Below are positions 22,817 to 53,589 of a stretch of 64,000 nucleotides of DNA, one piece after another. The stretch lies in the IMG/VR virus record IMGVR_UViG_3300029566_000004; one strand, 5' to 3'. A model generated the notes under the pieces. That model saw nothing but the letters and a program-made list of their open reading frames with translations, was not told where the DNA came from and ran no database searches. A program made the position numbers and the translations under genes. The stretch comes from a virus. Each line of letters opens with the position of its first letter. Positions within the stretch are counted from its first letter, which is position 1.

Positions 22817-23752
22817 CATTAAATCTAATTATTTCTAATTAGAATGGACTATCTCTTCAATATTTATTATTGTTTTGCACTTCGAATAGTAACTCATCTT
22901 CTATTCTACTGGGCTACACTCATCACCCATAGTCTCTACACCTTTTTTAAATATATTTCCATTTATAACCAAAAGCTTTTTTGCTATCTTTGCATCTTTT
23001 ACAAATATCTGAACTAGGAGTTTGACTAACTGTTAAATGCTATTTTATACACCAATCACCAGCTTCTTTTAAACTGTTGAAAATTTTAATTATTTTATAA
23101 TCGTCTGTACACATAGCTACTTTTTTACTATTTTTTTCCCTTATTTTATTTTTAGTTTCTTCTGTGTGGTGATGATTATAAAAAGGATTTTTTTCTCCTG
23201 TTCTTAATGATGCAATTTTTGATATTTTTTCTTTTGTTTTTTCATTATGCCTATGACCATAAAAAGGATTATTTTCTCCATAAAGTTTTTCTCCCCCATC
23301 GGTCATATTATATCCATTTGGCATTTTTGAATTAAAATATTTTATATAATACTATTCTAATTCTAATAATTTTTCTTTATCATCTTCATATACAACAACT
23401 TCATATTTAAAATTTTCCCAACCATATTTTTTAATTGCTCGCCCTAATAAAGTATTATGATTTATATCATCATTTTTATGTCGGCGCATTCTTTCTTTTA
23501 AAGTAGCTGTAGTATATCCGATGTACAGTTTATTATTTATTATATTGGTTATTTTATAGATACATCCCATATTATCACTTCCTTTGAAATATAGGAAATA
23601 TATTTAAAACTTGGCACGGTATTATCATATCCTTTTTATAGGACTTAGACTCCCTTACCCATAATATAATTACTTATTTCTGGACCGTTAGCCGAATAAT
23701 CGACACCCCTGAGTAATAGGGTTCACAAAATTTTAATTGACCTAGATTTTTA
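22817..23752 (-). mobile_element. Group I intron 2 in nrdJ (936 nt) carrying a GIY-YIG homing endonuclease gene
   Basis: Exon 2 ends ..ATT GGC T (U) and the intron ends ..AATG (omega-G). R-like element GTAGAGACTA (+ strand 22931-22943) and S-like element AGATAGTCCA (22845-22855). Splicing restores the frame and the RNR motif. Confidence 0.7.
22857..23570 (-). CDS. GIY-YIG homing endonuclease (I-TevI/Seg-like, NUMOD3 repeats), TAG read as sense; 3' end uncertain
   Basis: GCIYKITN..LYIGYT, then NPFYGHRHNEKTKEKIS and NPFYNHHHTEETKNKI repeats. Track ORFs 23352..23570 and 23040..23324 share a frame and are joined by TAG 23352. TAG also at 23040 and 22914. The canonical ending AFGYKWKYI* sits in another frame after an A5 run near 22977. 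Confidence 0.6.
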
Positions 23753-24305
23753 AGCCAATTTGACGCCAATCGCGCACACTATCTCTTTGCTCTTGCAGAG
23801 GATGACGATACAGTCCCTCATCTAAAACATCGTTAAGTGCACGCACTGCAACATCAACTGCCCGTTCAAATTCTTTCCATTGAAATTCTCCATTTACAAC
23901 AAACGCAGCCAAATTTAATGAACCAAGTAAACAACTGCCGCCAGCGGGCAGTGGCTCTTCGGCGCAGGGATTAGTTCCAGCATATTCAAAATCCGGATGA
24001 GTATTTAGCATATTTTCTTGTTCAATTCTATCCCAAAACAAAATACCTGGCTCTGCATAATTCCAATTTTGTTCACAAAGCAAATTAAATAAATCTTTTG
24101 CTTTTACGGTTTTACTAATTACTTCACCTGTTTCAGGTCGAGTAAAACTTAATTCCCAATCGTTATCATGTTGTACAGCGGTCATAAAGTCATCAGTTAC
24201 GCGTACAGAAATGTTAGCATAATTAACTTTATTTAAGTCACTTTTGATTGTGATAAACTTTTCAATATCGGGATGGTCGCATCGCATGGAAATCATTAAA
24301 GCCCC
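23753..24305 (-). CDS. nrdJ: Class II ribonucleotide reductase, exon 2
   Basis: GALMISMRCDHPDIEKFI continues the ..QNGRR of exon 1. Contains NPCAEEPLPAGGSCLLGSLNL. Confidence 0.8.
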
Positions 24306-25286
24306 CATAGTGGACTATATCTTATTTATTATATAATAATAAACTCGGGCGCTAATACGGTCTTATTGTTTCCTCAACCGTTAGTCTCTACACCTTCTAC
24401 TGCTTTTTCTTCAGTAGCTTGGCTCGGGGTTGTTGGGCCTTCCCCGAATTCACCCAATTCAAGACGCAGGGCTTGTGCTTTATCGTATTTTCTTTTTAGA
24501 ATAATAAAACTATCGTTTGGATAAATAAAATTTAAAAACTTTAATACATCTTCTCTATTGGCGAATTCTAATACGAAACAATTTTCATTAGACTTTGGTC
24601 TAATAATTGTTGAAATTGCGCATTGTTTTAATAAAATTTGTTGGATTCCTTCAAGTATTTTTAACGAAGAAGTAAAAGAGATTTTTTGCCATAATCTATT
24701 TCGGTCTTTTCTTCTACCCCATGTTAAACATCCGTCTCCATCAAAAAATCCTTGTACCAAATATTTTTCTAAATTTTTAGGAATAATGGGACAATGTTTA
24801 TTTTCTTTTGAAGAACAATGCTTATTAAAATCAGTAATTAAATCTAAATTACCAATAGTAATTCTAGCGCGAGGAAAACGTTTGGTTTTTGGAATATAGG
24901 TTAAATCTTCTGTATAATTTGCTCCAATGTATTCTGCAATAAATTGTAATATCTTTTTATCTTCTAAACAACACCCAAATTCAACTACATTATCATTGAT
25001 GTATCCATCTGCTAAAGCATAGCCAATAATATAAGCTTTTTCTGGAGTATCAATTTTATTAAACATTTTTGGGTTTTTATATTTAGGTTTTTTATATTTA
25101 GACTTGTCATTTAACCCATATTTAGTAATCCAATATTCAATAGTTGATTTTGCTTTTCCAACAATCTTTGCAATTTCTTGTTGTGTTAATCCTTTTTCTA
25201 AATATTTTTCTAATAGTTTTCTATTCACAGAAAGAGCCTCCTACTCTATATATTTTCGGAAACTTACAATTTAATTAAGCAAGTTT
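24306..25286 (-). mobile_element. Group I intron 1 in nrdJ (981 nt) carrying a LAGLIDADG homing endonuclease gene
   Basis: Exon 1 ends ..AGA CGT (U) and the intron ends ..ATG (G). R-like GTAGAGACTAA (24382-24394) and S-like GATATAGTCCA (24311-24321). Confidence 0.7.
24374..25228 (-). CDS. LAGLIDADG homing endonuclease with N-terminal HTH (284 aa)
   Basis: Two LAGLIDADG motifs (YIIGYALADGYI, LVQGFFDGDGCL). GTG 25228 follows AGGAGG. No in-frame TAG. Confidence 0.8.
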   Translation of the reverse strand: MNRKLLEKYLEKGLTQQEIAKIVGKAKSTIEYWITKYGLNDKSKYKKPKYKNPKMFNKIDTPEKAYIIGYALADGYINDNVVEFGCCLEDKKILQFIAEYIGANYTEDLTYIPKTKRFPRARITIGNLDLITDFNKHCSSKENKHCPIIPKNLEKYLVQGFFDGDGCLTWGRRKDRNRLWQKISFTSSLKILEGIQQILLKQCAISTIIRPKSNENCFVLEFANREDVLKFLNFIYPNDSFIILKRKYDKAQALRLELGEFGEGPTTPSQATEEKAVEGVETNG

Positions 25287-25736
25287 ACGTCTGCCATTTT
25301 GTCCAATTTGTTCGGTCACTTGTGAGAAAGTGTCCATGAAAGAAACAGCGCCACTTGTTGTTTTGGCTTGATTATGAACTCTTGCACCTGCTGGAGCCAA
25401 TTTACTAATATCAATGCCGCATCCTCCACCATATGAATAAGTACGTGCCAACTTTTTACAAGTTTCATAAATACTTTCAATGGAGTCCTCTGGAGGACTA
25501 ATAACATAACAATTACTATATGTTACTCGCTCTATCTGCTCACTTACATTTCGGTTAGAAAGAATACGACCACCAAATAAAAATTTCTTATCAATAATTA
25601 ATTGTTTTACTTCTTCATGACCATTACTAATACGGTCTAACCATTGGTCAAAACTTTCATCACCACGACGATATTTTTTCTCCCATATATCAATACCGAG
25701 AGTATTATTTTCGCCTAACCAATCTTGTATTGTCAT
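25287..25736 (-). CDS. nrdJ: Class II ribonucleotide reductase, exon 1
   Basis: MTIQDWLG..FGGRILSNRN..YGGGCGIDISKL..QIGQNGRR. The three exons total 737 codons in one frame. Confidence 0.8.
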
Positions 25737-25805
25737 AAGTTACTCCTTTATCTAAATGTAGTATGGTGTGGGGATACACCTACTATATATGGATTTTATA
25801 ATAAT

Positions 25806-26387
25806 TTATTTAATGTAATTTACCCAATCATCTATGTATCCTTTAAGTACTTCAGCTTCTTCTTCAGTAGTTAAAGAACCATCAGTTCGCATAATGATTG
25901 TATTCTCTCTATTTGAAATATCGAATTCAGAGAAATCAAATCGGTCAGTATTATACCGCCTTAATACTTCTTCCACATCTGGAGTATTCTCTCGTGAAAG
26001 CTGGCGTATGAGCCGTATATGGTCTGGGCAATCGCACATAATTAATAAGACATTTAAAAAGTCATGACTATCAAGAGCTTCCACCCCAGCAGGATTGAAG
26101 ACTCCAAAGTTTAATTTATCTTCGGCTAAATCAAGAACACTTGTGCCATATACCCAGCCATTAAATTCAGCTGCTTCAAGCATCTTACCTTCTTCAATTA
26201 GTTGAATAAATTCATCTCTGGTTATAAAATGATAATCTTTACCATCTACTTCATAATCTCTTGGTGGACGCGTAGTATAACTTACTTTTATGTGCGCTTC
26301 TGGATATATTTTTGCAAGGGCTTGGAGCAGCGCATCTTTGCCTGCTCCAGCCTTACCACATATCGCAACTATATTATACTTCTTCAT
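25806..26387 (-). CDS. Guanylate kinase-family (d)NMP kinase
   Basis: P-loop CGKAGAGKD and signature YTTRPPRDYEVDGKDYHF. Confidence 0.75.
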   Translation of the reverse strand: MKKYNIVAICGKAGAGKDALLQALAKIYPEAHIKVSYTTRPPRDYEVDGKDYHFITRDEFIQLIEEGKMLEAAEFNGWVYGTSVLDLAEDKLNFGVFNPAGVEALDSHDFLNVLLIMCDCPDHIRLIRQLSRENTPDVEEVLRRYNTDRFDFSEFDISNRENTIIMRTDGSLTTEEEAEVLKGYIDDWVNYIK

Positions 26388-29300
26388 CTTCCTCAGTTGT
26401 GCCTCCTTGATAACGAGTATCTTGTAAGATTAAATCTCCATTGCTTTTTACTTCGTTAATTTTATATAATTGATGTCCTACTGTGCTTGCATATTTCTTA
26501 CAAATGAAATTATCCCCTGAACGCATTCCATTTACAATTATCATATTACCACGCTTAAACCAAGAACGCTCAACTATATGTTTCTTGCCATCCGCTCCAC
26601 GTTCAGAAATCTGTCTATCAAATAATGCGAAATATTCTTTTCTAAACTTTACTTCAACAACGCCATCGGGAGTCAGCAAGGTTACTGTACTTTTTGTTTT
26701 ATTTCTATCAATACAAGTTCCTGCAATTTTCGTTAACTTAAAAAGTGGAATAGTTTTATTGCCACGATACCAATACTTATCAGCTTCTGGCTCTTCTGGT
26801 AAATCAAAGAAATCACTTAAACCATATTTTTCATTATTGATATTTAATAACTCGTGGTCATGATAATAAATACATGCAGCTTCCATTTCCCAATGTGAAA
26901 TTGTTCCGGACGCATATTTATCCCATTCTTCTTTGAACAAAATTGTATTTAACTTGAATAATAAATCTGATTTATTTTGCATCATCCAATGTCTAAATAT
27001 ATCCATTTCGCTTTGATATATCTTATCCCACTGTTTTGCATTCATTAAATCTCCATCAATTAATCTTTCCCAACCTTGACTAATTAAAAAATCAATTGCG
27101 CGCACGTCTAACCGATAATTTATATCTGATGCTTTCTCACGACATACTGCTTTGAGATAACGATTAAATTCATAAATGCGCAGACCGCGTTCCATCTTTT
27201 CATCATCTAATGGAACCAAATTGTATTTTAGTAATGTAGGGAAACTTGTTAAGTTCAAATTTGTCTTTGGCTCACAAGTTGTCCATAAATACCATGCCAT
27301 TGTAAACTTGCGGTCTTCTATACTATCAAAAGCTCCTGCTTTGATAAGTGAAATCATTGCTTGTTTTTTTGGATGTGCTCTATTTACAAAATCTTTTGGT
27401 GATGTATATGGACGATTCTCAATTATAACTTTGATAAAATCATCACCAACATTTACCAAATTCTTAAATCCCATTAAGATACAATTATTTTTTACATCAG
27501 GCGTAAAGCCATATTTTGAGGTATTAATATCAACTAACTTAACATCAATATCAGATGTTGTCAATTCACCAATAGCTTTTGCAATTTTACCATAATTAGT
27601 ACTTGCGCCACCGTCTTCATCAGTTGCACCGCTATTTACAATTAAACAAGCTGTATCCCAATATATTGAATTCCAATGAGTGGAAAGATAAATCATCTGT
27701 ACTCCAACAAATGAATACGGTAATGAATGATTTTTACTAAATGCATATCCAAGACTTGGTGCAATCGCTGTAAACCAAATATAATCTGCATAATGTGCGT
27801 CGCCCACATGCTCATATAATTGTTTACGCAAATCGGGAATTTTTTTCATTTGTTTCTTTGCAACAATTTTACGAGCTGCGTTTGCTTCTCCCAAAGTAAA
27901 CTTTGCAATATCTTCATCCATTAAAATTTCCATCATTTGCTCTTGAAGAGGAACTGTGCCATAATACGCATCACAATACTTATGAAACGCCGCACGCTGC
28001 TTATCATTTAATCCTCGAGTTAACATTTCCTCTTCAAACTCATTAGGATGTTCTTTTATACGAACATATCTATCCTGCTGTGGCTCTTTGCCTTTCTCAG
28101 ACATAAGACGCATCAACGCCGATGCCGCAGTCATCTCTAACATATTTTGCGGTTTGAGCTTTTTTGCTATCATCAAACCAACACCTGTTGCGAACTGGAA
28201 TACGTCGAGAATATCTCCCGCCGCAAGGTGATCCCAAAGTTCTTGATTAGTTACATCTATAACTTCTGGATGGAGATATTGATTATAAAATGTTCTCAAA
28301 TCAATATCTTCTATTTGTTTATCTTCCTTTAACATCTCATAACATTTGATAATTTTATCAGATGCTTCTGTTACAAGGAAGTCATACTTTGTATCACCAG
28401 CGGCTTCTGCCTCATGCAAATCCCAACAAGTTACTAAATCCCAACCAGGAGAACGCATAAATGATGCGGTTTCAAATGGGTTATCACCATACAAAATTAC
28501 ACCACTTGCATGTACTCCACGCTTATTGACAAGACCGCAAATATAAACTATGATATCTAATAAGCCAGGATATTTATTTACTTCCTCTAAGAAAGATGTA
28601 ACAGGTTTCCTATCTCTTTCTTCATTTCCATATATAACATCATTAATCTCCCATAAGAAACCACGCTCTTGTGGAATGAGAGAAGACATATATTGCGCTA
28701 TATCTACATCAATTCCATCGGGATATTCTTCACTTCTATATCCACGACAAGCAGTTTGGATTGCAGATTTAGTTGCTTCTGTACCAAATGTGACAACCTG
28801 CACAACACCAAATTCTCCGCGTTCTTCTCTTATCTTTTCAAAAATCAAAGGACGCTTACTTGGCGCAAGGTCAATATCAATATCAGGTAATTCCGCACGT
28901 TCTTTATTTAAAAACCTCCAGTATGGCAAGTCCCAACGAATCGGGTCAAGCTGGGTGATACCCAATAGATAATTAGATAAAAAACCTGTTGCTGAACCAC
29001 GACCGGGACCTACGATGCTACCGCACTCCCAAAATAAATTAATATAATGTTGGAATGTATTAAAATATGCAAATAGACAATCGTCTAACTTTTTTCCGAT
29101 ATCTTGAATAATATCAGCTTCAACGCAAATGCGGTCAATATAATTCCATTCCCACAAACCTTTTTCTATTAATCCTTCAAGACATTGATTAATCCAATAT
29201 CTCTCTTGAGGATTATCTGATGTTCCTAAATCTTGAATGATTTTCCATCGGCCCTTTAATTCATCGGCATAATCATTATTAACACCAAAATAATGATGAT

Positions 29301-30261
29301 ACTCACTTTTATCGTATTCTTTAACTTGAATCTTTGGAATAATCTGTTTGCGCTCAAGGCTAAACCATTGAATTTTTTTTTGCAGCTCTTGACTATTTTC
29401 AAACATCCAATCAATTACTGCCTCATCTTCAATGCTCTTTAACATTAATTCTTTGACTTCATCGGGAGACATTACATATGTATACTGATAGAACTTATCA
29501 GTTTCACGGTCGCCATCTTTAGAAGTCAAATACGCACGATGAATTGGTCTATCTTCTGGACGCAGATAATGAGCATCAGTACCAATAACCATAGGGATGC
29601 CCAATGCTTTACTTATCTTATATAAAGTTTGATTAACTAATATCTGTTCTTCATCTGTGCTTGGAGCGCACTCAATATAAAAATCAGAACCAAAAATATC
29701 TAAACAATAATTTAAGAAATTATTGATATTGTCATAATAAATCTTGGCGTTTTGATTATCTCCAACTGCTCTTGCCTTTGCCATCAATAAAGCATTAGAT
29801 GATAACTCACCACCAATACAAGCACTTGTTGCAATTACATGTCCAGGATTTTCTTTAATAATTCTCTTTAAATCTTCCTTTAAAGTTGGAACACGTTCCA
29901 GACGACCATATTCATATATGTTTGTCCATGCAAGTGAACTTAATTTTTTAAGTTGTGTATAACCGTCATTATCCTTTGCAATTAATATAAAGTGATAATA
30001 CTTTTGCTTCGGTTCTCTGGTCTCTGTAAGATAAATTTCATTACCTAACGCAATCGTAAAATCTGGGTCGGTTTCGCGCATCGCTTTCGCTAATTTATTA
30101 ACTGTCATATGCGCACAAAGAGCTTCGTGGTCCGTTATTGCCAAACCACTTAGCCCTAATTCTTTCGATGTTTTAATTAATGCTTCAGGTCGATTAATAC
30201 TATCAAGTAAGCGAAGATTTGAATACATTGTATGCGCATGGCAATTAAAGTATGTGTTCAT
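26374..30261 (-). CDS. dnaE: DNA polymerase III alpha subunit (DnaE-type, N-terminal PHP domain)
   Basis: 1295-aa intact ORF. PHP motif CHAHTMYS..DHEAL and GPGRGSATGFLSNYLLGITQLDP. No TAG. Confidence 0.9.
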   Translation of the reverse strand: MNTYFNCHAHTMYSNLRLLDSINRPEALIKTSKELGLSGLAITDHEALCAHMTVNKLAKAMRETDPDFTIALGNEIYLTETREPKQKYYHFILIAKDNDGYTQLKKLSSLAWTNIYEYGRLERVPTLKEDLKRIIKENPGHVIATSACIGGELSSNALLMAKARAVGDNQNAKIYYDNINNFLNYCLDIFGSDFYIECAPSTDEEQILVNQTLYKISKALGIPMVIGTDAHYLRPEDRPIHRAYLTSKDGDRETDKFYQYTYVMSPDEVKELMLKSIEDEAVIDWMFENSQELQKKIQWFSLERKQIIPKIQVKEYDKSEYHHYFGVNNDYADELKGRWKIIQDLGTSDNPQERYWINQCLEGLIEKGLWEWNYIDRICVEADIIQDIGKKLDDCLFAYFNTFQHYINLFWECGSIVGPGRGSATGFLSNYLLGITQLDPIRWDLPYWRFLNKERAELPDIDIDLAPSKRPLIFEKIREERGEFGVVQVVTFGTEATKSAIQTACRGYRSEEYPDGIDVDIAQYMSSLIPQERGFLWEINDVIYGNEERDRKPVTSFLEEVNKYPGLLDIIVYICGLVNKRGVHASGVILYGDNPFETASFMRSPGWDLVTCWDLHEAEAAGDTKYDFLVTEASDKIIKCYEMLKEDKQIEDIDLRTFYNQYLHPEVIDVTNQELWDHLAAGDILDVFQFATGVGLMIAKKLKPQNMLEMTAASALMRLMSEKGKEPQQDRYVRIKEHPNEFEEEMLTRGLNDKQRAAFHKYCDAYYGTVPLQEQMMEILMDEDIAKFTLGEANAARKIVAKKQMKKIPDLRKQLYEHVGDAHYADYIWFTAIAPSLGYAFSKNHSLPYSFVGVQMIYLSTHWNSIYWDTACLIVNSGATDEDGGASTNYGKIAKAIGELTTSDIDVKLVDINTSKYGFTPDVKNNCILMGFKNLVNVGDDFIKVIIENRPYTSPKDFVNRAHPKKQAMISLIKAGAFDSIEDRKFTMAWYLWTTCEPKTNLNLTSFPTLLKYNLVPLDDEKMERGLRIYEFNRYLKAVCREKASDINYRLDVRAIDFLISQGWERLIDGDLMNAKQWDKIYQSEMDIFRHWMMQNKSDLLFKLNTILFKEEWDKYASGTISHWEMEAACIYYHDHELLNINNEKYGLSDFFDLPEEPEADKYWYRGNKTIPLFKLTKIAGTCIDRNKTKSTVTLLTPDGVVEVKFRKEYFALFDRQISERGADGKKHIVERSWFKRGNMIIVNGMRSGDNFICKKYASTVGHQLYKINEVKSNGDLILQDTRYQGGTTEEDEEV

Positions 30262-30302
30262 TTCTTCCTCCCTTCATAATTTTATAATATTCTTACTTTA
30301 TA

Positions 30303-30331
30303 AGTATACCATATATTTTTATCAAAATCAA
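30303..30331 (-). promoter_or_regulatory. Early promoter (TTGATT-N17-TATACT) upstream of dnaE
   Basis: -35 at 30326-30331, -10 at 30303-30308, exact 17-nt spacer. Confidence 0.5.
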
Positions 30332-33435: not shown

Positions 33436-33739
33436 CGATGGTTTCCTCCTCTGCTGTTATAATTGGATTTGTGATAGGATCGTAGTTATCACTTATATCA
33501 ACATGACACATATTTTTTAATTTACGACGACCTTCACGATTATTTACTCCATGATTAATCACTTTTAAGAATGCTTTTGCGAGTGACTCATTTTCTTCAC
33601 GAGCCTCTTTTAACATATTTTCTACATCGACGAGATAATCTGTTAAAATTCCTACATTCTTATTATATTCTGCGTCTTTTGGCGCATATAAAGTAACCGC
33701 CATCAGAGCATCAATTACTTCTTGTTGTTTATGTTTCAT
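33380..33739 (-). CDS. Hypothetical protein (119 aa)
   Basis: Intact track ORF in operon; overlaps its neighbours by a few codons. Confidence 0.5.
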   Translation of the reverse strand: MKHKQQEVIDALMAVTLYAPKDAEYNKNVGILTDYLVDVENMLKEAREENESLAKAFLKVINHGVNNREGRRKLKNMCHVDISDNYDPITNPIITAEEETIDESTISVDTTKESEAESD

Positions 33740-34839
33740 AATATTATTCTCTCCTTAAATAATTGCATAAATTTTTCTGGGCCTTCATCGGTTGGGCTCG
33801 CTTTATATGAAGTAATTAAATGTTTATCAAAAATAAAGGATATTAATACTTCATTTTTATATTTTTTATGTAAACCTAAAAGTTTTGCTTTTAAACGTTT
33901 AAATTCACTATCACCTAACTCTTGGAATTGTCGGTCAAAAGCAATAATAATTTCTTGCACTCTATCTTCAATCAATAACTGTATTTGATATGATGATACA
34001 CTGCTACCACAGCATGCAACCGATATATCATTTTCCAAACCAAAATAACTTTGAAATTGTAGAGTGGATTTTTCACTTTCAAAAACAATAGCTTTACCCA
34101 TACGCTTTATATTGTCTTTTGAATTATTAAGGTTATATAAATTTAATCCAAGAGAATGATTATATTGTTGTTTATTAATAATCATTGGACGATATTTACC
34201 AAATCGTTCTGCATCTTCTTTGACCATCGTTCGTCCGCGCAGGCCTATAAATCGACCATCTTTATCAAAATGAGGAATACTAATTTGATCAGTAGAAAAA
34301 TTATATCCTATTTGCGCATGCGCTAATATCTATGGTTTAATATGATCATTAATCCAAGGCGTTAAATAATTCGGATTAATTGCCAATGGTCCCAATATGC
34401 GTTTATCATATTCTTTTAATTGCGGTACTTGATTTACTGTTGGAATATCATTAATCTTATCATATGCAATTAAATATTGCCAATCTGTTAAACCAAGATC
34501 TTCTGTATCACCTAAATCAATAACTATATTAAATTTAGCAGCAAGATAACGCACCGCATCATTTAAATCCATTTTGCGATTAGATTGAATTTGAGCAACT
34601 TTAATTGTTAATTCAAATATATCAAAAGCGCAATCACAATCAGTATAACATTTAAATAAATCACTATTTTCGTAAAAATAGAGTTTTCTACTTCCTTCTC
34701 CAGGCGGATTATGACAGATGGTATCAGAGATAAAACCAAAAGGGGTGAACTCTGGATTGCCACCCCATTCAGTTACTAATTGAAAGTAGTCATCAATGGA
34801 TAACTCTTCTCGAATTGCCTTCTTATCATAATCTTGCAT
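33736..34839 (-). CDS. dnaG: DnaG-type DNA primase (zinc-binding plus TOPRIM), one in-frame TAG
   Basis: Track ORFs 34330..34839 (Cys/His zinc-binding region CHNPPGEG..CYTDCDC) and 33736..34227 (TOPRIM: IVFESEKS, IIAFD) share a frame. They are bridged by TAG 34330-34332 plus an open 100-nt segment. Confidence 0.7.
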
Positions 34840-35126: not shown

Positions 35127-35625
35127 TTAAAAAGCACTTGGCTCTTCTGTAAATATTTTTAAATCTTCTATCGATTGAATTGCATAATCATATGAAGTGC
35201 AAAACATTGGCTTAATACGACAACAGCCCAAATCTGCTTTACACCACAGATATATTCCTTTCCATCGTCCACGCCTATTTTTATATACTGATAATTTTAA
35301 ATTCGGTGTATCAAACGTATTAGAGCTTAAAATTGTCTGTAATGCTTCTAAATCTTCTGATTTAACTGGAAGATAAATACCACCCCAGTCAACTTTATCT
35401 GCAATAGCTTTTGCACCACGCAATAAGTTTTGGTCAGGAGTTGTAGCTTGTTGATAATCCATATTTAACTGCGTTGCAGACATTATAAAGATTCCATACT
35501 TATTACATATATCTTTAAGCCGAATGGAAAGCATGTATAAGATATTATCTTCTCGAAGTTTAATTCCGCCACTTCGACGAGTGATTTCTTCCAATATTTT
35601 AAGGGAAGTATGAATATAGTCGTGA
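35127..35625 (-). CDS. dnaB: DnaB-like replicative helicase, exon 2
   Basis: (F)HDYIHTS..IFIMSATQLN..LRGAKAIADKVD..YKNRRG (RecA-fold C-terminal motifs). Confidence 0.75.
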
Positions 35626-36665
35626 CACGTTATTCTCATATTTCTATGAGCGCTGACTATCTCTTACTACATAAAAATTTTTATGTAGGACACCTTTTCG
35701 GCATTTAACTGGCTTCGTTTCCTAAAACCAGACTACGTATCAATAGTAGCCCTACTCCCCCGTCCAGAAGACCTGGGGGATAGTCGATACAGCTTCTTTT
35801 TTTAGACGTTATTCCAAGTTCTATTTTTTATTATATCAGCGACTGTTGATCTAGAACATTTATATTCTTCTGCTAATTTACTATAAGATATTTTTTCATT
35901 TTGATATCTTTTTCTAATTTCATTAGCTATTTCCTAATTCATTTTTGTATGTCTTCCTTTTTCAATATAGTCTGGCATAATATTTTTATATCTTCTTCCA
36001 GACCAAATATTTAAAAATGAATTATAATGTAGTCGTTCTGAATATTTTTCTTTATAAATTTTACTTGGACTTTCTCCATTTTTATAAGCAATACGTAATT
36101 CTTTTATCTCGCTTGGGGTTAACTCTGCTTGCCCCCAAGTTAATTTTTCTTTCTATTCCAATGTTTTTGGCTTAGAAGCGTTTTTTCCTCCAATTTCAAT
36201 ATTATATCCATTTGGAATTAATGTATTATACTAAATAATATAATATTTTTCTAATTGATTTAATATATCTATATCGGGAATATCTTTAACTAATATTTCA
36301 TAAGTAAAATTTTCAAATCCATATTTTCTAAACGCTCTATGCAATGGTGAATTATATTCACTACTGTTTTCATTTTTATATGAACTTTTATGATTATTAT
36401 ATCTTTCATTTTTTGGACTAATTGATTGTCCTATATATTGCTTATTATTAATTTGATTTATAAATCGGTAAATAATTCCCATAAAATCAACTCCTTTCAA
36501 TATCGTATGAAAATAGTCAATTATATTTTAATTACTCCCGTCCAAAAAAAGTTTGCCACGGGATTCCCATGCATTACTGTTTAGGGTTCCCCGTTAGCCA
36601 CAATTGTGACCCCGCTGATTAGCGGAAAAGTGTTTCACTGTCCCGTCACCCTTTCAATAGGGTCG
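35626..36665 (-). mobile_element. Group I intron in the dnaB-like gene (1040 nt) with a GIY-YIG homing endonuclease gene
   Basis: Exon 1 ends ..GTG TT (U) and the intron ends ..ACGTG (G). R-like GTATCGACTA (35781-35790) and S-like AGATAGTCAG (35653-35663). Both flanks are about 85% identical to the thyX-like intron. Confidence 0.7.
35802..36482 (-). CDS. GIY-YIG homing endonuclease (226 aa) with three in-frame TAG
   Basis: ATG 36482 follows AAAGGAG. GIIYRFINQ..QYIGQS, ..YYII(TAG)YNTLIPNGYNI, C-terminal HTH-like region. TAG at 36231, 36153 and 35934. Frame checked triplet by triplet to TAA 35802-35804. Confidence 0.75.
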
Positions 36666-37696
36666 AACACGTATTTAATGTCATGATCACGGATATTTTT
36701 CTTAATTTTATCCTCAACGTCTTGTAGGGAGAAGTCAGGCAACTGTTCAATATATAGCGGGGCACTCGCAAGTACTGTGGCGGCTTCGCGGACTCTATCC
36801 TCTTCATCACCTTGATATTTTCCATTAATAATATGCTCCTCATTTACATTTGCTAAAAACGCAAGCATCATTGTTTGCAATTCTTCTATATCTTGCTCTG
36901 TACTTATATACAAAGTCGGTTCACAAGTTCCATTTTTAATCCATCCAAAAATTTCATCATAAATTTTATTACAAGAAATGAAACAAGCATCTGCAATCAT
37001 ACTACGAGATTTACCAACGCCAGTAGGAGCTGAACGCAGATAAAATTTCTTTAATCGTGCGCCTCTTGTAACTGTGTTGATAAGTGGACCATATAATGGT
37101 ACTCCAACTTCTGGATATGCTTTCAAGCGGTCAATTAATTCTAATGCCCCTTCTCCAGCTTGTGTTGCTTCGCCAAATTCATTATCTACATATTCAGCGC
37201 GAATAGACTCAATTTTCCCATCAACCTTGTTTGCAATATCTTCTAAGGTTGAATTATCTAACCATTCTTCTTGCATTTGTTTGCGTTTAGTATCTAAAAT
37301 ATTATCTGGGTCATAGATATCTGATACATCAATACCATATTTATCATATGCTCGCAATAATGACATTTTCTTCATTCTGCTATAATAATAATCAAATGCA
37401 TCAGGGATTGCCGCTTCAGATACTTTAGCTAACCATTCATTTCCCTTATTGTTTTTAAATACTGCTTCTGCCTTGGGGCGACTACTAAAAAAGTCAGCAA
37501 TATTTTCTAATGTAATTTTTTGTGCACCCAATTCATAAATTTTATATATAGCACCAAAGGTAACACGATGAAATTCATCAGGAAAATCTTCATCTGTGAT
37601 AGTATATTTATCTGTGAAGTCCAATAGACTAGGATTATTATAAACGCATCCAATAACTTGCATTATACTTGGAACATCAACATACTTACTTGCCAT
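36666..37696 (-). CDS. dnaB: DnaB-like replicative helicase, exon 1
   Basis: MASKYVDVPSIMQVIGCV start at 37696 after GAGGAG. Walker A SAPTGVGKS. Ends ..HDIKYVF. Exons sum to 509 codons in frame. Confidence 0.75.
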
Positions 37697-40355: not shown

Positions 40356-40786
40356 TTACTTAGATATTTCATCTCCAAAAAGCAGAACATCCGCATAAGG
40401 TAACTGTCGTGCAAACTTCATAAAATCTTTCGACCATTCAGTTAATTTATGGTATCTACGCTGAGTTGGCAAACACATTTCATAAAGATTTTCATAATTC
40501 ATAGTGACTGTACGAGTTTGCAAAAAACTTTCTGGCAACCAACGAATCAATTCTTTCCAATATTTCTTATCTTTTGTTTCAAGATATTTTTGACGTAATG
40601 ATTCACAAATATTAATTATAGTTTTTGCTGCTGATTCATTTAATCCAGTTTCAATTTCATGCATTACATCAGAATGATAGTCATCAATTTCAAAACAATC
40701 TAATGTAATTGGTTTACTTGTAAGTTTATGCATAGTAGAAGTCGAGTTAGCAGTAGTACCTACTTTATAAGTATCAAATTCTTTCC
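40356..40786 (-). CDS. ThyX-like (Thy1-fold) protein, exon 2
   Basis: (W)KEFDTYKVGTTANSTSTMHKL.. continues ..APLYW from exon 1. Confidence 0.6.
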
Positions 40787-41381
40787 CATTTATGGACTAT
40801 CTTTTACTCTCTAATGAGAGGATACCATTTCGGCATTTAATTAGCTTCGTTTCCTAAAACTAAACTACGTATCAATAGTAGCCCTACTTCCCTGCCCAGA
40901 AGGCCTTGGGAATAGTCTCTACAGGTTCATTTCAAACACACATTTTAAATATAAAACTTTACTCTACGTCTAAACTATAGCCTTCAATCTCGGCTTTAAT
41001 TTCAAGCTGGTACAAATATTGCCCCATAGCACTTGCTTGTGACTTCCACTGCTCCATAGGGCAATTTGGTTCAAAATCAAGCTTACCAGCTTCTCTCTTT
41101 ATAATCATTGAATGGAGTTTATTATACTTGTCCTTAACAAAATAATACTCTCCAATCGCCCTACTCTTATAATCATCAGATTTTAGTAATTCAATAATCC
41201 TATCAAACGTCATAGTAATTGCCTCCTTAAAATAACAAATCCTTAGTTTACAAGTTATATGTGTGTGTTTGAAATGTTTCCCACGGGATTCCAATGGGGG
41301 GTTCCCCGTTAGCTATATTTTACAAAAAATATAACCCTCGCTGATAGACGAGAAAAGTATTTCATTGGCAGAAAGAATTCT
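40787..41381 (-). mobile_element. Group I intron in the thyX-like gene (595 nt) carrying a non-nuclease ORF
   Basis: Exon 1 ends ..TAC TGG T (U) and the intron ends ..AAATG (G). R-like GTAGAGACTA (40913-40922) and S-like AGATAGTCCA (40793-40802). Paralogous to the dnaB intron. Confidence 0.7.
40959..41213 (-). CDS. Intron-encoded 84-aa protein without recognisable homing-endonuclease motifs
   Basis: ATG 41213 follows TAAGGAGG. MTFDRIIELLKSDDYKSRAIGEYYFVKDKYNKLHSMI..; predicted helical. No GIY-YIG, LAGLIDADG, HNH or His-Cys motif seen. Confidence 0.5.
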   Translation of the reverse strand: MTFDRIIELLKSDDYKSRAIGEYYFVKDKYNKLHSMIIKREAGKLDFEPNCPMEQWKSQASAMGQYLYQLEIKAEIEGYSLDVE

Positions 41382-41772
41382 ACCAGTAGAGTGGAGCAGT
41401 AATATCAACAGATACTATAATTTGTCGCATAAATTTACGATGCTCTGGACCAGCCATAATAAGCTTATGAGCAAGATTTAAATCATCAGGACACAAAGCA
41501 GCATATTCTACATAACTACCATCAGTATGAATAATAGAACGCTGTGTAATATCTTTTACAGTCTTGGCATATAAAGTATCATAATCGGGATCGAGCATAT
41601 TTAAATGAGCTGCTTCCAACCATTTTGTCGCTAGACTCTATACAGTCGCACCGAATACAATAATAGGCTTAGTTCCAAATTCGCTTAAAGATTTATTCCA
41701 GCTATTATGAGGATTTCGCATTCCTCGAAATGCCCCCTCAAAATTAAACACTCTTATATTTTCAAATTTCAT
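41382..41772 (-). CDS. ThyX-like protein, exon 1, one in-frame TAG
   Basis: MKFENIRVFNFEGAFRGMRNPHNSWNKS.. TAG at 41638-41640. ..EHRKFMRQIIVSVDITAPLYW. Exons sum to 273 codons. Confidence 0.6.
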
Positions 41773-42004: not shown

Positions 42005-43045
42005 TCATTTAATACTATAACCAAATTCTTTTGCTCCAAAATAATTTTGCCAATAGATTTCTCGTTCATTTAAAAGTTCTGGAGGACATTCCTCGATTAC
42101 TTCAAACATAAAATTCTCAACACCATCGGCTTGCATAGCTGGATACAACTTATTGCGAGTTTGCGCTTCAGCGCCTAACCCGCGTTTTATGTGCTGGCGC
42201 CAACGGTCGGCAAAACGCACGCATTGACCTACATAGCACATTCCATTTAAAGTATTTGTAATTTTATAAATGCCCCCTACTTTATCACCAATTACACGAC
42301 CAATTAAATCGGTTGTAGGTTTTTCATAGTAACATTTATAAATTAATTTATTGAGAGTTTCTGGATTGTGTAAATACGGAGTGATACTTCGTAATTTTTC
42401 AATCTCCAATAGGTCAGTAGAAGGAATTTGTAACATATAGAAACTTTGCTGTTGCGCGTCAAGCATCATGCGTTTATAAGATTCAATGGCTGCCCGAGTT
42501 TTCTCTTGACATTCATTTAATCTATGGCGCTCTGATATAAATTGTTTGCGTAATTCTTTAATTTCATTTGCAAATTCTTCTTTTACTATTAAAAAATCTG
42601 ACCGATATTTATCAATTTCTTCTTGATAATTTTCGGCTTCTCGTTGAGCACTTTCCTCAAAGGAAGTTTCCATTCGCGCTTTAGCTTTATCATAAATTGC
42701 GCTGACGGCTTCTCTTGCCATTTCTTCAGTTGTTCGTGCATTAAAATCTAATTGACTAATGCGAGCATTAAGTTCAGCTTCTTCTGACTATAAAAAACCA
42801 ATGCTAAGATTAAGTGCATCTTCTCGTTCTTGTAAATCTCGGATAGTATTATTTTCCTGCTCAATGAGTTGAGAAGCTTCAAGCGCCTCAAGGCGCAAAT
42901 TGTCTCTCTATTCTTGTAGAATAGCAATCGACTTCTTCTATCGAATAATTGAGTGCTTTCTACTAAAATAAATATAAAAGTGTGCGCCGATGGAAATCAG
43001 ACTTATTGTTCCAAATATTATTAAAAGTGATAGTTCAATCGGCAT
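42005..43045 (-). CDS. Membrane-anchored coiled-coil protein with C-terminal GIY-YIG/T5orf172-like domain (346 aa), three in-frame TAG
   Basis: ATG 43045. N-terminal transmembrane helix (LSLLIIFGTISLISIGAHFYIYF). TAG at 42938, 42908 and 42788. C terminus GGIYKITN..CYVGQ..RWRQH..NE.EIYW. Confidence 0.6.
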
Positions 43046-50614: not shown

Positions 50615-50861
50615 TTTTATCACCCTCTTCAAGCCAGGCTAATTCCATTTCTAACCATTTCTTATAGTCCGCTCGAGAGACGGCATCAAGATATACACCT
50701 GAACGCACAGCAATTACCAAATGTTCATTAAACTGCTGATGAAGAGCTTCAAAAACTTTACGAGCTTCTTCATAATCAATTTCATCAGTAAAGCGTACAA
50801 GAATAATATCGTTTTCATTAACGGGGAAAGATGTTATTTCATATTGTTCATTAGCTGTCAT
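50598..50861 (-). CDS. Hypothetical protein (87 aa)
   Basis: ATG 50861 lies 8 nt after AAGGAGG (the track starts at TTG 50867). Confidence 0.5.
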   Translation of the reverse strand: MTANEQYEITSFPVNENDIILVRFTDEIDYEEARKVFEALHQQFNEHLVIAVRSGVYLDAVSRADYKKWLEMELAWLEEGDKNEDIL

Positions 50862-50885
50862 ATACAATACCTCCTTTACTATATA

Positions 50886-50914
50886 ATTATATCATAAAAT
50901 TTAATTTTTTGCAA
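50886..50914 (-). promoter_or_regulatory. Early promoter (TTGCAA-N17-TGATATAAT)
   Basis: -35 at 50909-50914, -10 at 50886-50891. Confidence 0.55.
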
Positions 50915-50921
50915 TAAAAAT

Positions 50922-50953
50922 AAGCCATAGGATATTAAGACATCCTATGGCTT
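50922..50953 (-). terminator. Rho-independent terminator
   Basis: 12-bp stem AAGCCATAGGAT / ATCCTATGGCTT with an 8-nt loop. Confidence 0.7.
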
Positions 50954-50968
50954 ATGTAATTATTATTA

Positions 50969-51364
50969 TTAATTTTCTTCATAGTCTTCATTCATTTTTT
51001 GCTCAATATTATCAGATGTTGTATAATTATATTTTAATGCATTTGCTTCTTGTTCGAGTCGAGCGTTTAATTCTGTCATGACAGATTCATATTTAACTCC
51101 ATCTTTTGTGTTTTCTTTGGTGGATTTTCTATAGTAAAAACCTTGACTAACACCGTAAGCAGTCCAAGGGAGACCAACCATTGCAGTTAACCAAGGCAGT
51201 TCACCAAAATATGCATTTTTAACACATATATAGGCTAAAATAATAAAAGAAAGACTAATTACCCAAATTAGAGCTGACTCTTGGATTAAAAGAACTTTAG
51301 AAAATTCTTTTTTTGGCTGTGCTTTTTTCTTTCTTTTGGTTTTGACTTTCTTGTTTTTATCCAT
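50969..51364 (-). CDS. Membrane protein (131 aa, two predicted transmembrane helices)
   Basis: Lys-rich N terminus, then VLLIQESALIWVISLSFIILAYI and LPWLTAMVGLPWTAYGV. Confidence 0.55.
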   Translation of the reverse strand: MDKNKKVKTKRKKKAQPKKEFSKVLLIQESALIWVISLSFIILAYICVKNAYFGELPWLTAMVGLPWTAYGVSQGFYYRKSTKENTKDGVKYESVMTELNARLEQEANALKYNYTTSDNIEQKMNEDYEEN

Positions 51365-51390
51365 AACTTTAATCCTTTCGAGAAAATAAA

Positions 51391-51411
51391 AAGGGGGCTT
51401 TTAGCCCCCTT
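51391..51411 (-). terminator. Rho-independent terminator
   Basis: AAGGGGGCT-TTT-AGCCCCCTT, followed by TTTTATTTT on the minus strand. Confidence 0.7.
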
Positions 51412-51416
51412 ATATA

Positions 51417-51878
51417 TTAGTGACGAAGTTTATTTACTTCATCCAAATTAATCCAACAAGGTTTATTAAAAATTTTACCGAAATGATCCCATTCTGTTTC
51501 AATGAGTAAACGATCCCCAGGATTGCATGTTCCTACCTTATTGCTCTCCACCGTAGGATTATCGTAAACTGTTATTTCGCCCTCTTCATGAACAAGCACT
51601 GAATAAGGAAGTGCAGTATACATAATATAATTACCATGAGATTTTTTTACATAACCAATTTTATTTGGTTGATATCTTAAAATAACTTTAAAATATTCTT
51701 GATTAAAATCATCAATAATATATACACTTTGATGATAGCTTAAAATATCAAGTACGTTAGGACTCTTTGTCTCTGTATCAGGACTATCCATTACAGAAAC
51801 AGTCTTAGTCTGAGCGGTATAAATACCAATAATTCTAGAATGCTCAGGTGCTTTAGTTTTGTTCTTAAATAAACTCAT
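51417..51878 (-). CDS. Hypothetical protein (153 aa)
   Basis: Intact track ORF in operon. Confidence 0.5.
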   Translation of the reverse strand: MSLFKNKTKAPEHSRIIGIYTAQTKTVSVMDSPDTETKSPNVLDILSYHQSVYIIDDFNQEYFKVILRYQPNKIGYVKKSHGNYIMYTALPYSVLVHEEGEITVYDNPTVESNKVGTCNPGDRLLIETEWDHFGKIFNKPCWINLDEVNKLRH

Positions 51879-51892
51879 TACATTTTTCTCCT

Positions 51893-52311
51893 TTAAGTTA
51901 ATTTTCTTGCCAAATCGGCAACTTTACTACGATGAACATATCGTAATTCAATTTCGCCATATATATCAGTATTGCGGAATACTTTTGACACTCTTTTCAT
52001 TCCATTATGAATACCAGCATATGCGGGTGAATCAACTTGTGTTTTATCATCACCATCAATAATACATATTGAATTTTCACCAATGCGAGTGAGCGCAAGT
52101 TGCATCATATCTATATCCAAATTTTGAGCTTCAGAAATATATACACCACTATTATCAGGTGTTTCATATCCACGAATATCAGATAAAGGCAATAAAATCA
52201 ATTGTTCATTATCAATTAATGCCTCTACCTCCATACGACTACCTAATTTACTAATTAATAAGTTACCAATTTGTGAATCAAGTAATTTTTCATCACGAGT
52301 ACCGGGATAAT
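51893..52311 (-). CDS. PhoH-like ATPase, exon 2
   Basis: (Y)YPGTRDEKLLDSQIG.. completes the LG(F/Y)xPG..EK motif. Contains ISEAQNL and GDDKTQVD. Confidence 0.7.
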
Positions 52312-53589
52312 CATTTTAAAGCCTTATATTTTTCAATATAAGATAGACTATATCTTAATTTCGGTTTAATAAAGTTTTATATAAATCATATTTTCTTTGT
52401 ATATACATAGTAGAATCGTTATAAAGAATATCTAAAATTTTTGTTACCTATTTATATCCTCTCCACTGACAATGCCAAGCGGTAGTATAGAAAGGCTTAT
52501 TATGTTCTGTTTTATTTATTAAATTATCTATTAATAAAACAAGTTCATTTGCTATACCTTCATGGTAACTTGTAAAATTTAAAGTAACATCGCTACTTTT
52601 ATTTTCACTGAAACTTATACTACCATCTCCATCAATTAATCCACGTATAAAATCCCTTAAAAATTTTTGTGGAATATTTTTAGGAAGAGAATTAATTTCA
52701 TAGGTTTTATTTGGTACTATATTATATTTTTGTAAATCTTGATATATTTGTTCATCACAAAATTCTAAACTATAGCATTGATTTCCTCTATTATCTAAAA
52801 TTAAATCACTATCAATCTAAAGAACAGTTTTTAATTTATCTAAGATATCTCTATCTTTAGCCTATAACGATATTCTAATTCGCCCTTGCTTTCCAGGAAT
52901 TTTACTAACATTACCATCGGTAAAAAGTAAACCTATGAAATAAGCTTTATCTGGAGAGTCTATACAAGAAAAATAGTCACTAATTATTCTTTTGTTAACT
53001 CGATTGGTTGTCTTTTTAGTTAAACCCAATTCTTTTATTAAATTTCTTAAGGTTTCTTTATCCCAACCAAATTCTTGAGCCAATGTTTTTAAATCTTCAC
53101 TCTCTTCGCAATAGCGTTGTTTCAAAATTTTTAACTGTTCATTAGTTAAAGTTTTCTTTTTTCTTCCGCCTCGGATAGGAATATTAGCCTAAACTATAAA
53201 TTCTCTAACTTGTCGATAGTTATACTTTGAATTTTGTGATAACCAAGTAATGGATTTACCGTTTACATATTCTTGAATAATTTCTTCTTTTGTCATTTTG
53301 ATTTCCTTCTTTCTTAAAATATTTTCTATTATATATAATTTTTAAAGAAAGAAGTTTTTCTTTTTTTGTCCCGAAATTTCCTGCGCTTCGAAAAATAATT
53401 ATATTTTTCTACTCCCTTGCGGGATAGTCGTTGAACCTTCCTCTATTCGAGGCTTGGCTGCTGATTGCCCAATCTTTTTAATTTTCATACTTTCACACTT
53501 AGACTTATTTCATTCTTATGTTGTAGTTTAAAAAGCTTAAGGGGTTTCCAGCAATTCACAGGATTTTACTAGAGCTTATCCCTTTGTTA
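52312..53589 (-). mobile_element. Group I intron in the phoH-like gene (1278 nt) with a LAGLIDADG homing endonuclease gene
   Basis: Exon 1 ends ..CTA GGG T (U) and the intron ends ..AAAATG (G). R element GTTCAACGACTAT (53424-53436) lies upstream of the ORF. S-like GATATAGTCTA (52344-52354) is near the 3' end. Confidence 0.7.
52355..53296 (-). CDS. LAGLIDADG homing endonuclease with N-terminal HTH (313 aa), four in-frame TAG
   Basis: ATG 53296 follows GAAGGAAA. Motifs YFIGLLFTDGNV and FIRGLIDGDGSI. Track ORF 52862..53125 is the central fragment. Codon count matches the coordinates exactly when TAG is read through. TAA at 52355. Confidence 0.75.

Follow-up and report, generated by a model that had tools for sequence, protein, structure and literature searches.

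The 64,000-nt stretch of DNA analysed here (the window) raises the question of why homing endonuclease genes (HEGs) inside introns of replication-module genes carry in-frame TAG codons, while the exons that flank them carry none. An earlier note on this DNA had proposed that full-length endonucleases can be made only when TAG is suppressed, that this would confine homing to a late phase, and that the mobile elements have adapted to the code of the phage. The source is a gut phage with a genome of ~135–147 kb. The features of the window are compiled in Table 1.

Table 1. Features of the window. In-frame TAG codons of the HEGs were scored on the − strand; the higher number of each range is the first base of the codon on the + ruler.
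Feature	Coordinates	Strand	Remarks
Late (tail/structural) gene block	1..17692	+	TAG is sense; 83/266 Gln-type codons are TAG (31%)
nrdJ exon 3	21606..22816	−	PDB alignment, anchors, spliced reading frame
nrdJ intron 2, group I by sequence	22817..23752	−	936 nt; precisely absent in L042, L043, L053
GIY-YIG + NUMOD3 gene (nrdJ intron 2)	22947..23570	−	207 codons; TAG at 23352-23354, 23040-23042
nrdJ exon 2	23753..24305	−	PDB alignment, anchors, spliced reading frame
nrdJ intron 1, group I by sequence	24306..25286	−	981 nt; last base of 5′ exon T, last base of intron G; found in every close relative
LAGLIDADG_3 + HTH endonuclease gene (nrdJ intron 1)	24374..25228	−	284 codons; 0 TAG, 10 CAA/CAG
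nrdJ exon 1	25287..25736	−	PDB alignment, anchors, splice model
Primase	33736..34839	−	1 coding TAG (34330-34332) at conserved Glu; counter-example to TAG-free early genes
dnaB exon 2	35127..35625	−	Splice model
dnaB intron, group I by sequence	35626..36665	−	1040 nt; absent in L103
GIY-YIG + HTH_7 gene (dnaB intron)	35802..36482	−	226 codons; TAG at 36231-36233, 36153-36155, 35934-35936
dnaB exon 1	36666..37696	−	PDB colinearity, splice model
Free-standing gene, C-terminal GIY-YIG domain	42005..43045	−	PHROG 'homing endonuclease'; 3 in-frame TAG, 18 CAA/CAG
phoH exon 2	51893..52311	−	Splice model
phoH intron, group I by sequence	52312..53589	−	1278 nt; Q/R/S elements
LAGLIDADG_3 gene (phoH intron)	52355..53296	−	313 codons; 4 in-frame TAG at 53189-53191, 52862-52864, 52817-52819, 52448-52450
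phoH (PIN + PhoH) exon 1	53590..54430	−	PDB colinearity, splice model

The four inserts in nrdJ, dnaB and phoH look like group I introns, as judged from a U before the 5′ splice site, a terminal G, R and S core elements, and precise presence or absence among related genomes. The spliced coding sequences (nrdJ, 737 codons; dnaB, 509; phoH, 419) contain no internal stop codon, their products are colinear with NrdJ, DnaB and PhoH from the PDB, and splicing reproduces the intron-less alleles of related phages, namely those already listed for nrdJ intron 2, L103 and L077 for dnaB, and L366 and L367 for phoH. With the junctions placed by reading frame and intron-less alleles, all four fit the U/G splice-site rule. 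The exact S element AGAKATAGTC occurs four times in the 64 kb, always on the − strand and once near the 3′ end of each intron, and upstream of it lies GAGACTA or CGACTA as the complementary R element; the core of nrdJ intron 1 comprises the R element GTAGAGACTA and the S element AGATATAGTC. The 3′ ends of the open reading frames abut or overlap the P7 strands or R/S core elements: that of the nrdJ intron 1 gene overlaps the R element, and the stop codon of the phoH HEG overlaps the S element. Neither at its gathering score nor at E ≤ 10 did the Rfam Intron_gpI covariance model match the introns, ORF-less forms included; it also missed the homologous region of Twort, so this test seems insensitive for such introns. 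Five putative group I introns were counted in replication-module genes, four of them HEG-bearing.

Related genomes hold these elements in several allelic states. Besides the intron-less allele, L106 and L107 have a dnaB intron without the ORF, with 130 nt in place of positions 36623..35800 of the window, and the phoH intron is ORF-less in L018 and L020 and bears another HEG in L019 and L021. The 5′ half of the phoH intron has nucleotide matches to 263 phage records, Twort among them. Substitutions are clustered beside the phoH intron site. The LAGLIDADG gene of nrdJ intron 1 is present in all six close relatives at 99% identity. The earlier note had regarded this TAG-free gene as a possible recent arrival; given that the variable elements are intron 2 and the TAG-bearing dnaB and phoH HEG cassettes, its recency is unsupported. 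The ability to home is indirectly suggested by presence or absence at fixed sites, by the occupation of the same sites in distant phages, and by the substitutions beside the phoH site.

The endonuclease genes were assigned by Pfam matches above gathering scores, to GIY-YIG with NUMOD3, GIY-YIG with HTH_7, and LAGLIDADG_3 (twice). The GIY-YIG domains (PF01541; cut-off 22.6 bits) scored 46.9 and 27.5 bits, and the LAGLIDADG domains (PF14528; cut-off 22.5 bits) 49.2 and 41.3 bits. Residues Y5, Y16, G18, R27, H31, E78 and N94 of the GIY-YIG family are invariant among 37 sequences, and D127, G128 and D222-G225 of the LAGLIDADG family among 28, the window copy being included in both sets. The HEGs align end to end with hundreds of homologues, and the window copies are free of frameshifts. 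No TAA or TGA was found inside the 746 codons of the three recoded intron HEGs, all nine in-frame stops being TAG in an AT-rich genome. In the TAG-free gene of nrdJ intron 1, translation starts at a GTG at 25228 just after AGGAGG, and the sole nearby TAG (25243) lies inside this Shine-Dalgarno (SD) sequence.

In this phage TAG is read as glutamine. It is dense in tail, holin and RuvC-like resolvase genes, which are the richest in TAG, and nearly absent from the replication module; in structural and lysis genes the in-frame TAGs align with glutamine, as in a recoded phage. In-frame TGA was never seen here; the reassigned codon is TAG. Across 27 early genes of the replication module, TAG accounts for two of 306 Gln-type codons (0.65%; 304 CAA/CAG), a ~50-fold contrast with the late block, and it terminates none of them. 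We infer a temporal decoding switch solely from this contrast. ARAGORN found no suppressor tRNA in the window or in the relatives' loci ~10 kb past its left end and 6.6 kb past its right end, and the ~81 kb examined of the ~135–147-kb genome yielded neither a suppressor tRNA nor RF2 or another code-change gene. The early genes are not uniformly free of TAG. The primase site is polymorphic between TAG and Glu across near-identical genomes, and an SSB-like gene of the same module has a coding TAG at codon 8, so both genes would also need read-through. Among relatives, exon TAGs occur in phoH (one in L019, six in L123, four in L129) and dnaB (five in L220), where they likewise interchange with CAA/CAG. 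TAG-free exons are thus no rule, and replication proteins can tolerate TAG.

Within the window, the three recoded HEGs contain nine TAG in their 746 codons, versus none in the 1,665 codons of the spliced exons, which have 55 CAA/CAG (Fisher p = 3.5e-5 for these HEGs against their own host exons). If the exon glutamine codons followed the late-gene rate, the probability of finding zero TAG would be ~1e-9. The earlier note had likewise described all three sets of host exons as devoid of TAG, and its counts of three in the dnaB HEG, four in the phoH HEG and none in nrdJ intron 1 hold, while the gene of nrdJ intron 2 has two instead of three. Taken together, the four intron HEGs carry nine TAG and 31 CAA/CAG (9/40, 22%), which differs from the 27 early genes (Fisher p = 7e-8) and is indistinguishable from the late share of 31% (p = 0.35). 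This bears out the view that the mobile elements share the code of the phage; with a frequency not above the late level, nothing points to positive selection for TAG. Among seven near-identical genomes, nine of 11 HEGs contain TAG and two are TAG-free, with 26 TAG against 103 CAA/CAG. Many other phages have HEGs of these families at the same positions in dnaB and phoH, and many of these HEGs and some of the host exons contain TAG. The comparison with homologues that the earlier note had suggested placed the HEG TAGs in glutamine columns, invariant ones included, where they swap with CAA/CAG even at 94% identity; two invariant glutamine sites at which TAG had seemed conserved lost this pattern when more copies were added. 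On these alignments, the HEG TAGs are sense codons for glutamine in intact genes.

The SD sequence of the dnaB HEG is predicted to lie in a hairpin (z = −3.5; SD pairing probability 0.87), which recurs in most of 12 family members with differing arm sequences. The corresponding signal was z = −2.1 for the phoH HEG and was not significant in the two nrdJ HEGs. For a late promoter in or behind the 5′ arm of the hairpin, a further trait of the I-TevI type, the HEG leaders offered only candidate TATATAAT-like strings.

With moderate confidence, we favour the reading that the three intron HEGs and the free-standing GIY-YIG gene, all of them intact, are written in the late-type code, and that active endonuclease would be made only once TAG is decoded. 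Without suppression, ribosomes would halt at codon 73, 84 or 36 and release products without essential parts of the enzyme. As the earlier note had anticipated, the sequence implies that the full-length enzymes need TAG decoding and that the three spliced host mRNAs do not; active endonuclease would thus appear later than the products of nrdJ, dnaB and phoH. Initiation would provide a second brake, at least in the dnaB HEG and probably in the phoH HEG, through the SD-burying hairpin, as in I-TevI of T4. A likely benefit would be that ribosomes are kept out of the ribozyme core, next to or within whose P7 strands the ORFs end, while the host mRNA must splice. The nuclease would also act when replicating genomes offer both targets and repair templates. 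It is plausible that the HEGs are confined to the late phase, a view weakened by the TAGs of the primase and SSB-like genes and by the TAG-bearing dnaB and phoH exons of relatives. The HEG TAGs may have been selected as a gate, or may simply be tolerated, the phage having no early need of the HEGs. A bolder version, which appears unlikely, would have them selected as a 'ribosome brake and code lock', with the code change as a barrier to mobile introns. If true, the brake would halt early ribosomes before the ribozyme core and so protect the splicing of essential early genes; HEG lineages would be functional only in TAG-decoding phages, and the code change would confine mobile introns, or shield against them, among co-infecting phages. 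As a corollary, the TAG-free, GTG-initiated LAGLIDADG gene of nrdJ intron 1 would have been kept translatable early for a role that benefits the host, such as that of a maturase.

Several alternatives bear on this reading. There may be no temporal gate, with TAG read adequately from early on and HEGs, under weak selection on their expression, drifting to an unconstrained mix of glutamine codons; the replication genes would then avoid TAG on other grounds, such as the efficiency or fidelity of translation in essential, highly expressed genes, or because the recoding has spread incompletely. This is consistent with a HEG share of TAG equal to that of late genes and without excess, with the fast turnover between TAG and CAA/CAG, with the exceptions in the primase, the SSB-like gene and the relatives' dnaB and phoH exons, and with the varied use of the alternative code by replication machinery according to Borges et al. 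(bioRxiv 10.1101/2021.08.26.457843). However, the ~50-fold early/late contrast is difficult to account for unless TAG is poorly read for a time, TAG never ends an early gene, and the concentration of TAG in tail, holin and RuvC-like genes matches published late-biased recoding. We consider the absence of a gate unlikely.

Descent of the introns and HEG cassettes from phages recoded genome-wide, with the TAGs as a relic of donor codon usage, is in our judgement quite improbable as the explanation. In phages with just 42–75% identity between their host proteins, the phoH and dnaB sites are occupied by the same LAGLIDADG and GIY-YIG families, and some of these phages have TAG-rich exons and HEGs with 42–67% TAG among Gln-type codons; exchange of this kind is also suggested by the swapping of HEG cassettes within a constant intron between near-identical genomes. 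Yet a donor signature would fade under such quick codon turnover, and the TAGs would be purged, as in neighbouring genes, if early translation mattered; such a legacy would account for the origin of the TAGs, not for their persistence, and is compatible with gating. That the TAGs are true nonsense mutations in decaying HEGs is extremely improbable. Decay does occur in these families, as in the frameshifted nrdJ intron 2 GIY-YIG copy of L122 and in the nrdJ LAGLIDADG homologue of L054, which contains TGA and TAA. In the window, however, all nine in-frame stops are TAG, they sit at glutamine columns of frameshift-free genes that align over their full length, and the catalytic residues are invariant, which effectively refutes the pseudogene reading; the decay foreseen by the earlier note as a possible objection was not found in these ORFs.

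Compared with known systems, the introns resemble those of the Twort, SPO1 and T4 type in their R/S core, in the U/G rule and in the matches of the phoH 5′ half to phage records, and precise presence or absence, ORF-less introns and a frameshifted copy recall the HEG life cycle; they differ in that the Rfam group I model misses them and that their HEGs depend on a non-standard code. As in Lak, crAss-like and 'gemstone' phages, TAG stands for glutamine, and the recoding is late-biased, frequent in structural and lysis genes but rare in those for replication; here, by contrast, no code-change gene was found in the ~81 kb, and sporadic TAGs occur in replication genes. In the td intron of T4, entry of ribosomes into the intron core impairs splicing, and translation of I-TevI is delayed (PMC3073962), for I-TevI and also for mobE by a hairpin that sequesters the ribosome-binding site (Gibb & Edgell 2009, 2010; PMC3073962). 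The window shares with this system a GIY-YIG HEG that occupies a peripheral loop of a group I intron in a phage gene for nucleotide metabolism or replication, an ORF whose 3′ end reaches the ribozyme core, an SD sequence in a conserved hairpin, and the logic of keeping the intron free of ribosomes while it splices. In this phage the extra lock would lie in elongation and termination, at the in-frame TAG, and not only in initiation. The closest precedent is that of the TGA-recoded Agate phages, for which a recoded endonuclease in a group I intron was already described, and its delay to late infection proposed, by Borges et al. (bioRxiv 10.1101/2021.08.26.457843; Nature Microbiology 2022). In both cases the reassigned stop codon is much more frequent in a HEG, itself inside a group I intron, than in the early gene that harbours the intron, and the genome size of 135–147 kb lies within the Agate range. 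In contrast to Agate, the reassignment here is TAG to Gln instead of TGA to Trp, recoding of the HEGs is at the late-gene level and not shown as 'preferential', several HEGs of two families in three host genes are involved, and near-identical genomes provide intron-less, ORF-less and HEG-swapped alleles.

Pfam searches confirmed four intron-borne homing endonuclease genes (HEGs), three of which an earlier note had described as recoded with TAG inside TAG-free host exons. In-frame TAGs numbered three in the dnaB-intron GIY-YIG gene (36231, 36153 and 35934), four in the phoH-intron LAGLIDADG gene and none in the nrdJ intron 1 LAGLIDADG gene, which starts at a GTG after AGGAGG, all as previously counted; the GIY-YIG gene of nrdJ intron 2 carries two rather than the three assigned to it. 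The spliced nrdJ, dnaB and phoH genes have exactly the lengths reported (737, 509 and 419 codons) and contain 55 CAA/CAG codons and no TAG. Expressed as TAG/(TAG+CAA+CAG), the share was 31% in late genes (83/266), 22% in the four intron HEGs (9/40) and 0.65% in 27 replication-module genes of 10,134 codons (2/306). The HEGs differed from early genes (p=7e-8) and not from late genes (p=0.35), which they resemble in codon usage. When near-identical genomes were pooled, TAG was found in 9 of 11 HEGs, with 26 TAG against 103 CAA/CAG codons. From these shares and the pooled count, the contrast between HEGs and exons is therefore real and general in the phage group.

A pseudogene reading of the TAG-bearing HEGs was rejected: all nine in-frame stops in the four ORFs are TAG, with no TAA or TGA, each gene aligned over its full length to hundreds of homologues, and the catalytic residues are invariant. 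Standard-code annotation cuts HEG proteins short (P0267), and database homologues were predicted with TAG translated as Q, so that part of their glutamines are TAG codons (Q54, Q143, Q247, Q277 and Q283 of protein P0159 are TAG in the DNA). Residue counts at TAG columns of database proteins are for this reason unreliable, and codon-level alignments were used instead; a tally of TAG-aligned residues across all ORFs was too noisy, with non-coding TAGs and single-mutation neighbours mixed in. At the codon level, TAG interchanges with CAA/CAG among homologues. At two invariant glutamine columns of the phoH LAGLIDADG family, 6/14 and 7/14 aligned copies have TAG and almost all of the rest have CAA/CAG; copies of 94% identity differ at three TAG sites, and the invariant glutamine of the YIGQ motif is TAG in three copies of the dnaB GIY-YIG family. 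Among 19 TAGs in relatives' host exons, 12 stand opposite a glutamine of the window protein. On all these grounds the HEG TAGs are sense codons. Selection for TAG at the two phoH LAGLIDADG columns was suspected, as five of five recoded copies had it there, and this idea of TAG retention was dropped given CAG or CAA at these columns in loci L289, L290 and L292, even in one copy of 94% identity. TAG-free copies of the HEG families occur at loci L126, L286, L287 and L291.

Exon joins were set using structure alignments of NrdJ, DnaB and PhoH, intron-less alleles and the reading frame. In all four inserts of these genes, the 5' exon ends in U and the insert in G, and a GAGACUA/CGACUA R element is accompanied by a complementary AGA(U/G)AUAGUC S element. 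A search of the 64 kb for the exact S motif gave four matches, one at the 3' end of each insert. The 5' half of the phoH intron is 71-81% identical to 263 phage records, including Twort, AR9, SP-15 and ICP1. Rfam searches at the gathering score and at E<=10 gave no group I match in the window or in the ORF-less introns of relatives. Rfam 15 missed all five apparent group I introns (window and relatives' loci L018, L106 and L368), and a control search of the homologous Twort region was likewise negative, which suggests a gap in sensitivity for this intron type. With Rfam silent, the case for introns is built on splice-site rules, R/S elements, intron-less alleles and nucleotide similarity, and this sequence evidence agrees across all four inserts.

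Several alleles of these introns were found among the relatives. The second nrdJ intron, the dnaB intron and the phoH intron are each precisely missing in some of them (L042, L103 and L366, respectively, among others), and ORF-less forms of the dnaB and phoH introns lack the HEG cassette alone. Such cassettes, made up of the ORF and a leader of about 130-140 nt, are swapped or deleted while the rest of the intron stays conserved (loci L018-L021, L106 and L107). The phoH intron thus occurs without an ORF, with LAGLIDADG variant A (4 TAG) or with variant B (6 TAG, 50% amino acid identity), and the dnaB intron with and without its GIY-YIG gene. Strings resembling TTGGAC...TATATAAT are common to the HEG leaders; chance matches are likely because the genome is AT-rich (33% G+C in the window). 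An intron-less phoH (L366/L367, 16176-17435) encodes a protein 97.6% identical overall to that of the window; a cluster of substitutions lies in the ~25 nt next to the insertion point, a pattern that co-conversion or target-site immunity would produce.

A fifth intron, again of this type, interrupts a Trp codon (T/GG) and carries a TAG-free ORF of 84 residues (Pfam crAss001_48) that is not an endonuclease; it is precisely missing in L103 and L107, and a different 560-nt insert takes the place of the ORF part in L104 and L106. In a Hadza contig of a near-identical phage (NODE_347; L122, 1-7201), the DnaE polymerase gene, uninterrupted in the window, is split by three additional HEG-bearing inserts (NUMOD3, HNH and GIY-YIG, with 1, 1 and 3 TAG, respectively), and the nrdJ intron 2 GIY-YIG gene is frameshifted. 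Relative _165556 (L103) is without the window's dnaB intron and has another insert 76 codons further downstream, with a LAGLIDADG gene of 3 TAG, as well as an insert of 1.1 kb that carries a TAG-free LAGLIDADG gene at the equivalent of window ~39143 (insert coordinates in L103, 6260-7437 and 2460-3555).

Reading TAG as sense raised the long-ORF DNA from 51 kb to 70 kb. The RuvC-like resolvase and holin genes form the distal end of the minus-strand block, downstream of the TAG-free replication genes, and the DnaE-type polymerase of the module is related to YorL of SPbeta. A sigma-70-family factor encoded inside the TAG-free module may drive middle or late transcription. The product of the free-standing GIY-YIG gene begins with a hydrophobic segment, continues into a long region resembling a coiled coil and ends in a GIY-YIG domain, a layout unusual for a homing endonuclease; the gene's apparent restriction to one relative was a locus-edge artefact, as it is present in every locus that reaches it. 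Near-identical genomes (93-99% at the nucleotide level) came from IMG/VR sample 3300045988 (_166184 and _165556 among them) and from a 146,870-bp Hadza gut assembly (ENA ERZ4561717, NODE_347).

Positions of features in the window
Feature	Position	Strand	Remarks
ORFs of 1000-1500 codons	1-17692	+	19-22 in-frame TAG apiece; one matches PHROG tail-protein families
Replication and nucleotide-metabolism module	~61.6 kb down to 18 kb	-	sigma factor, PhoH, gyrase B/A, ligase, DnaB, primase, guanylate kinase, NrdJ, dUTPase, DnaE-type polymerase
Holin	18014-18421	-	2 TAG; adjoins RuvC-like resolvase
RuvC-like resolvase	19011-19523	-	~10 TAG in 171 codons, densest recoding of the window
DnaE polymerase gene	26377-30261
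Primase coding TAG	34330-34332	-
HEG cassette swap/deletion spans	52361-53423 and 35800-36623
Hairpin regions upstream of HEG start codons	36483-36560 and 53297-53360	-
Fifth intron	40787-41377	-	591 nt, R/S elements; splits phrog_6721 gene (exons about 41378-41772 and 40359-40786)
Free-standing GIY-YIG gene	42005-43045	-	3 in-frame TAG; PHROG 'homing endonuclease'
phoH insertion-site junction	53590/52311
Sigma-70-family factor	59785-60627	-	regions 2, 3 and 4

The earlier note took the TAGs to restrict HEG production to the late phase. Without suppression, ribosomes would stop at codon 36-84 and would be kept off the ribozyme core; the HEG ORFs end right beside the P7 strands (R or S) or run into them. 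The Shine-Dalgarno (SD) sequence of the dnaB-intron HEG lies inside the hairpin ACUAUUUUCA/UGAAAGGAGU (z=-3.5), and a 10-bp hairpin extends across the SD region of the phoH HEG (z=-2.1). Most of 12 members of the dnaB GIY-YIG family (loci L207-L221) have an SD-containing hairpin with differing arm sequences, in TAG-bearing and TAG-free copies alike.

This late-only reading is tempered by TAGs outside the HEGs and by the lack of a tRNA gene in the sequence searched. One coding TAG falls in the primase, at a position where 30 homologues conserve Glu; among near-identical genomes the site varies, with TAG in the window and in three relatives (one fetched twice) and Glu in two others. The pattern has the look of a recent G->T mutation, here in a replication gene that is essential to a recoded phage. 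Codon 8 of an SSB-like gene is TAG, and the phoH genes of L019, L366 and L367, all close relatives, have one TAG each. In more distant phages with the same intron, phoH has 4-6 TAG; dnaB has as many as 5. A hunt for a suppressor tRNA turned up no tRNA gene, either in the window or among 24 loci from relatives, which took in flanks past both window ends. Borges et al. report that recoding is variable in replication genes and that a suppressor tRNA can be detected in just ~40% of TAG-recoded genomes (bioRxiv 10.1101/2021.08.26.457843). The TAG density of the HEGs is not above the late-gene level, and codon-level alignment of HEG copies revealed no specifically conserved TAG site; simple tolerance accounts for the HEG TAGs as well as selection does. 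Decoding-timed HEG production is a plausible hypothesis for the mechanism.

The TAG-free LAGLIDADG gene of nrdJ intron 1 had been proposed as a recent arrival. This is unsupported, since the gene is fixed in all six close relatives, 99% identical and TAG-free; the elements that vary between relatives are the TAG-bearing ones. With ten glutamine codons, late-gene usage would leave no TAG at all with a probability of ~0.02, which makes the deficit no more than mildly significant, and chance and a need for early translation are equally open as explanations.

If decoding state does time the endonucleases, stop-codon recoding would be more than a lysis timer and would discipline selfish DNA within essential phage genes. 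The genes come in intron-less, ORF-less-intron, HEG-A, HEG-B and frameshifted-HEG forms among genomes of 93-99% identity, which makes a ready-made test set, and amber suppression is readily supplied in E. coli. In T4, SD hairpins are found on I-TevI and mobE, and ribosomes entering the intron core impair splicing (PMC3073962); the same SD-burying device is present upstream of the window's dnaB HEG and probably of its phoH HEG, and decoding-based timing, if true, would be another way, acting at elongation, to reach the delay that T4 obtains from RNA hairpins. The observation in the earlier note is correct, and the idea of HEG delay is already published: in Agate phages, a group I intron endonuclease in an early gene is preferentially recoded (TGA), and in-frame stops were proposed to block endonuclease production until late (bioRxiv 10.1101/2021.08.26.457843). 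The window is the TAG counterpart of that TGA case, to which its phage group adds multiple HEGs, a natural series of alleles and a ribosome-binding-site hairpin.
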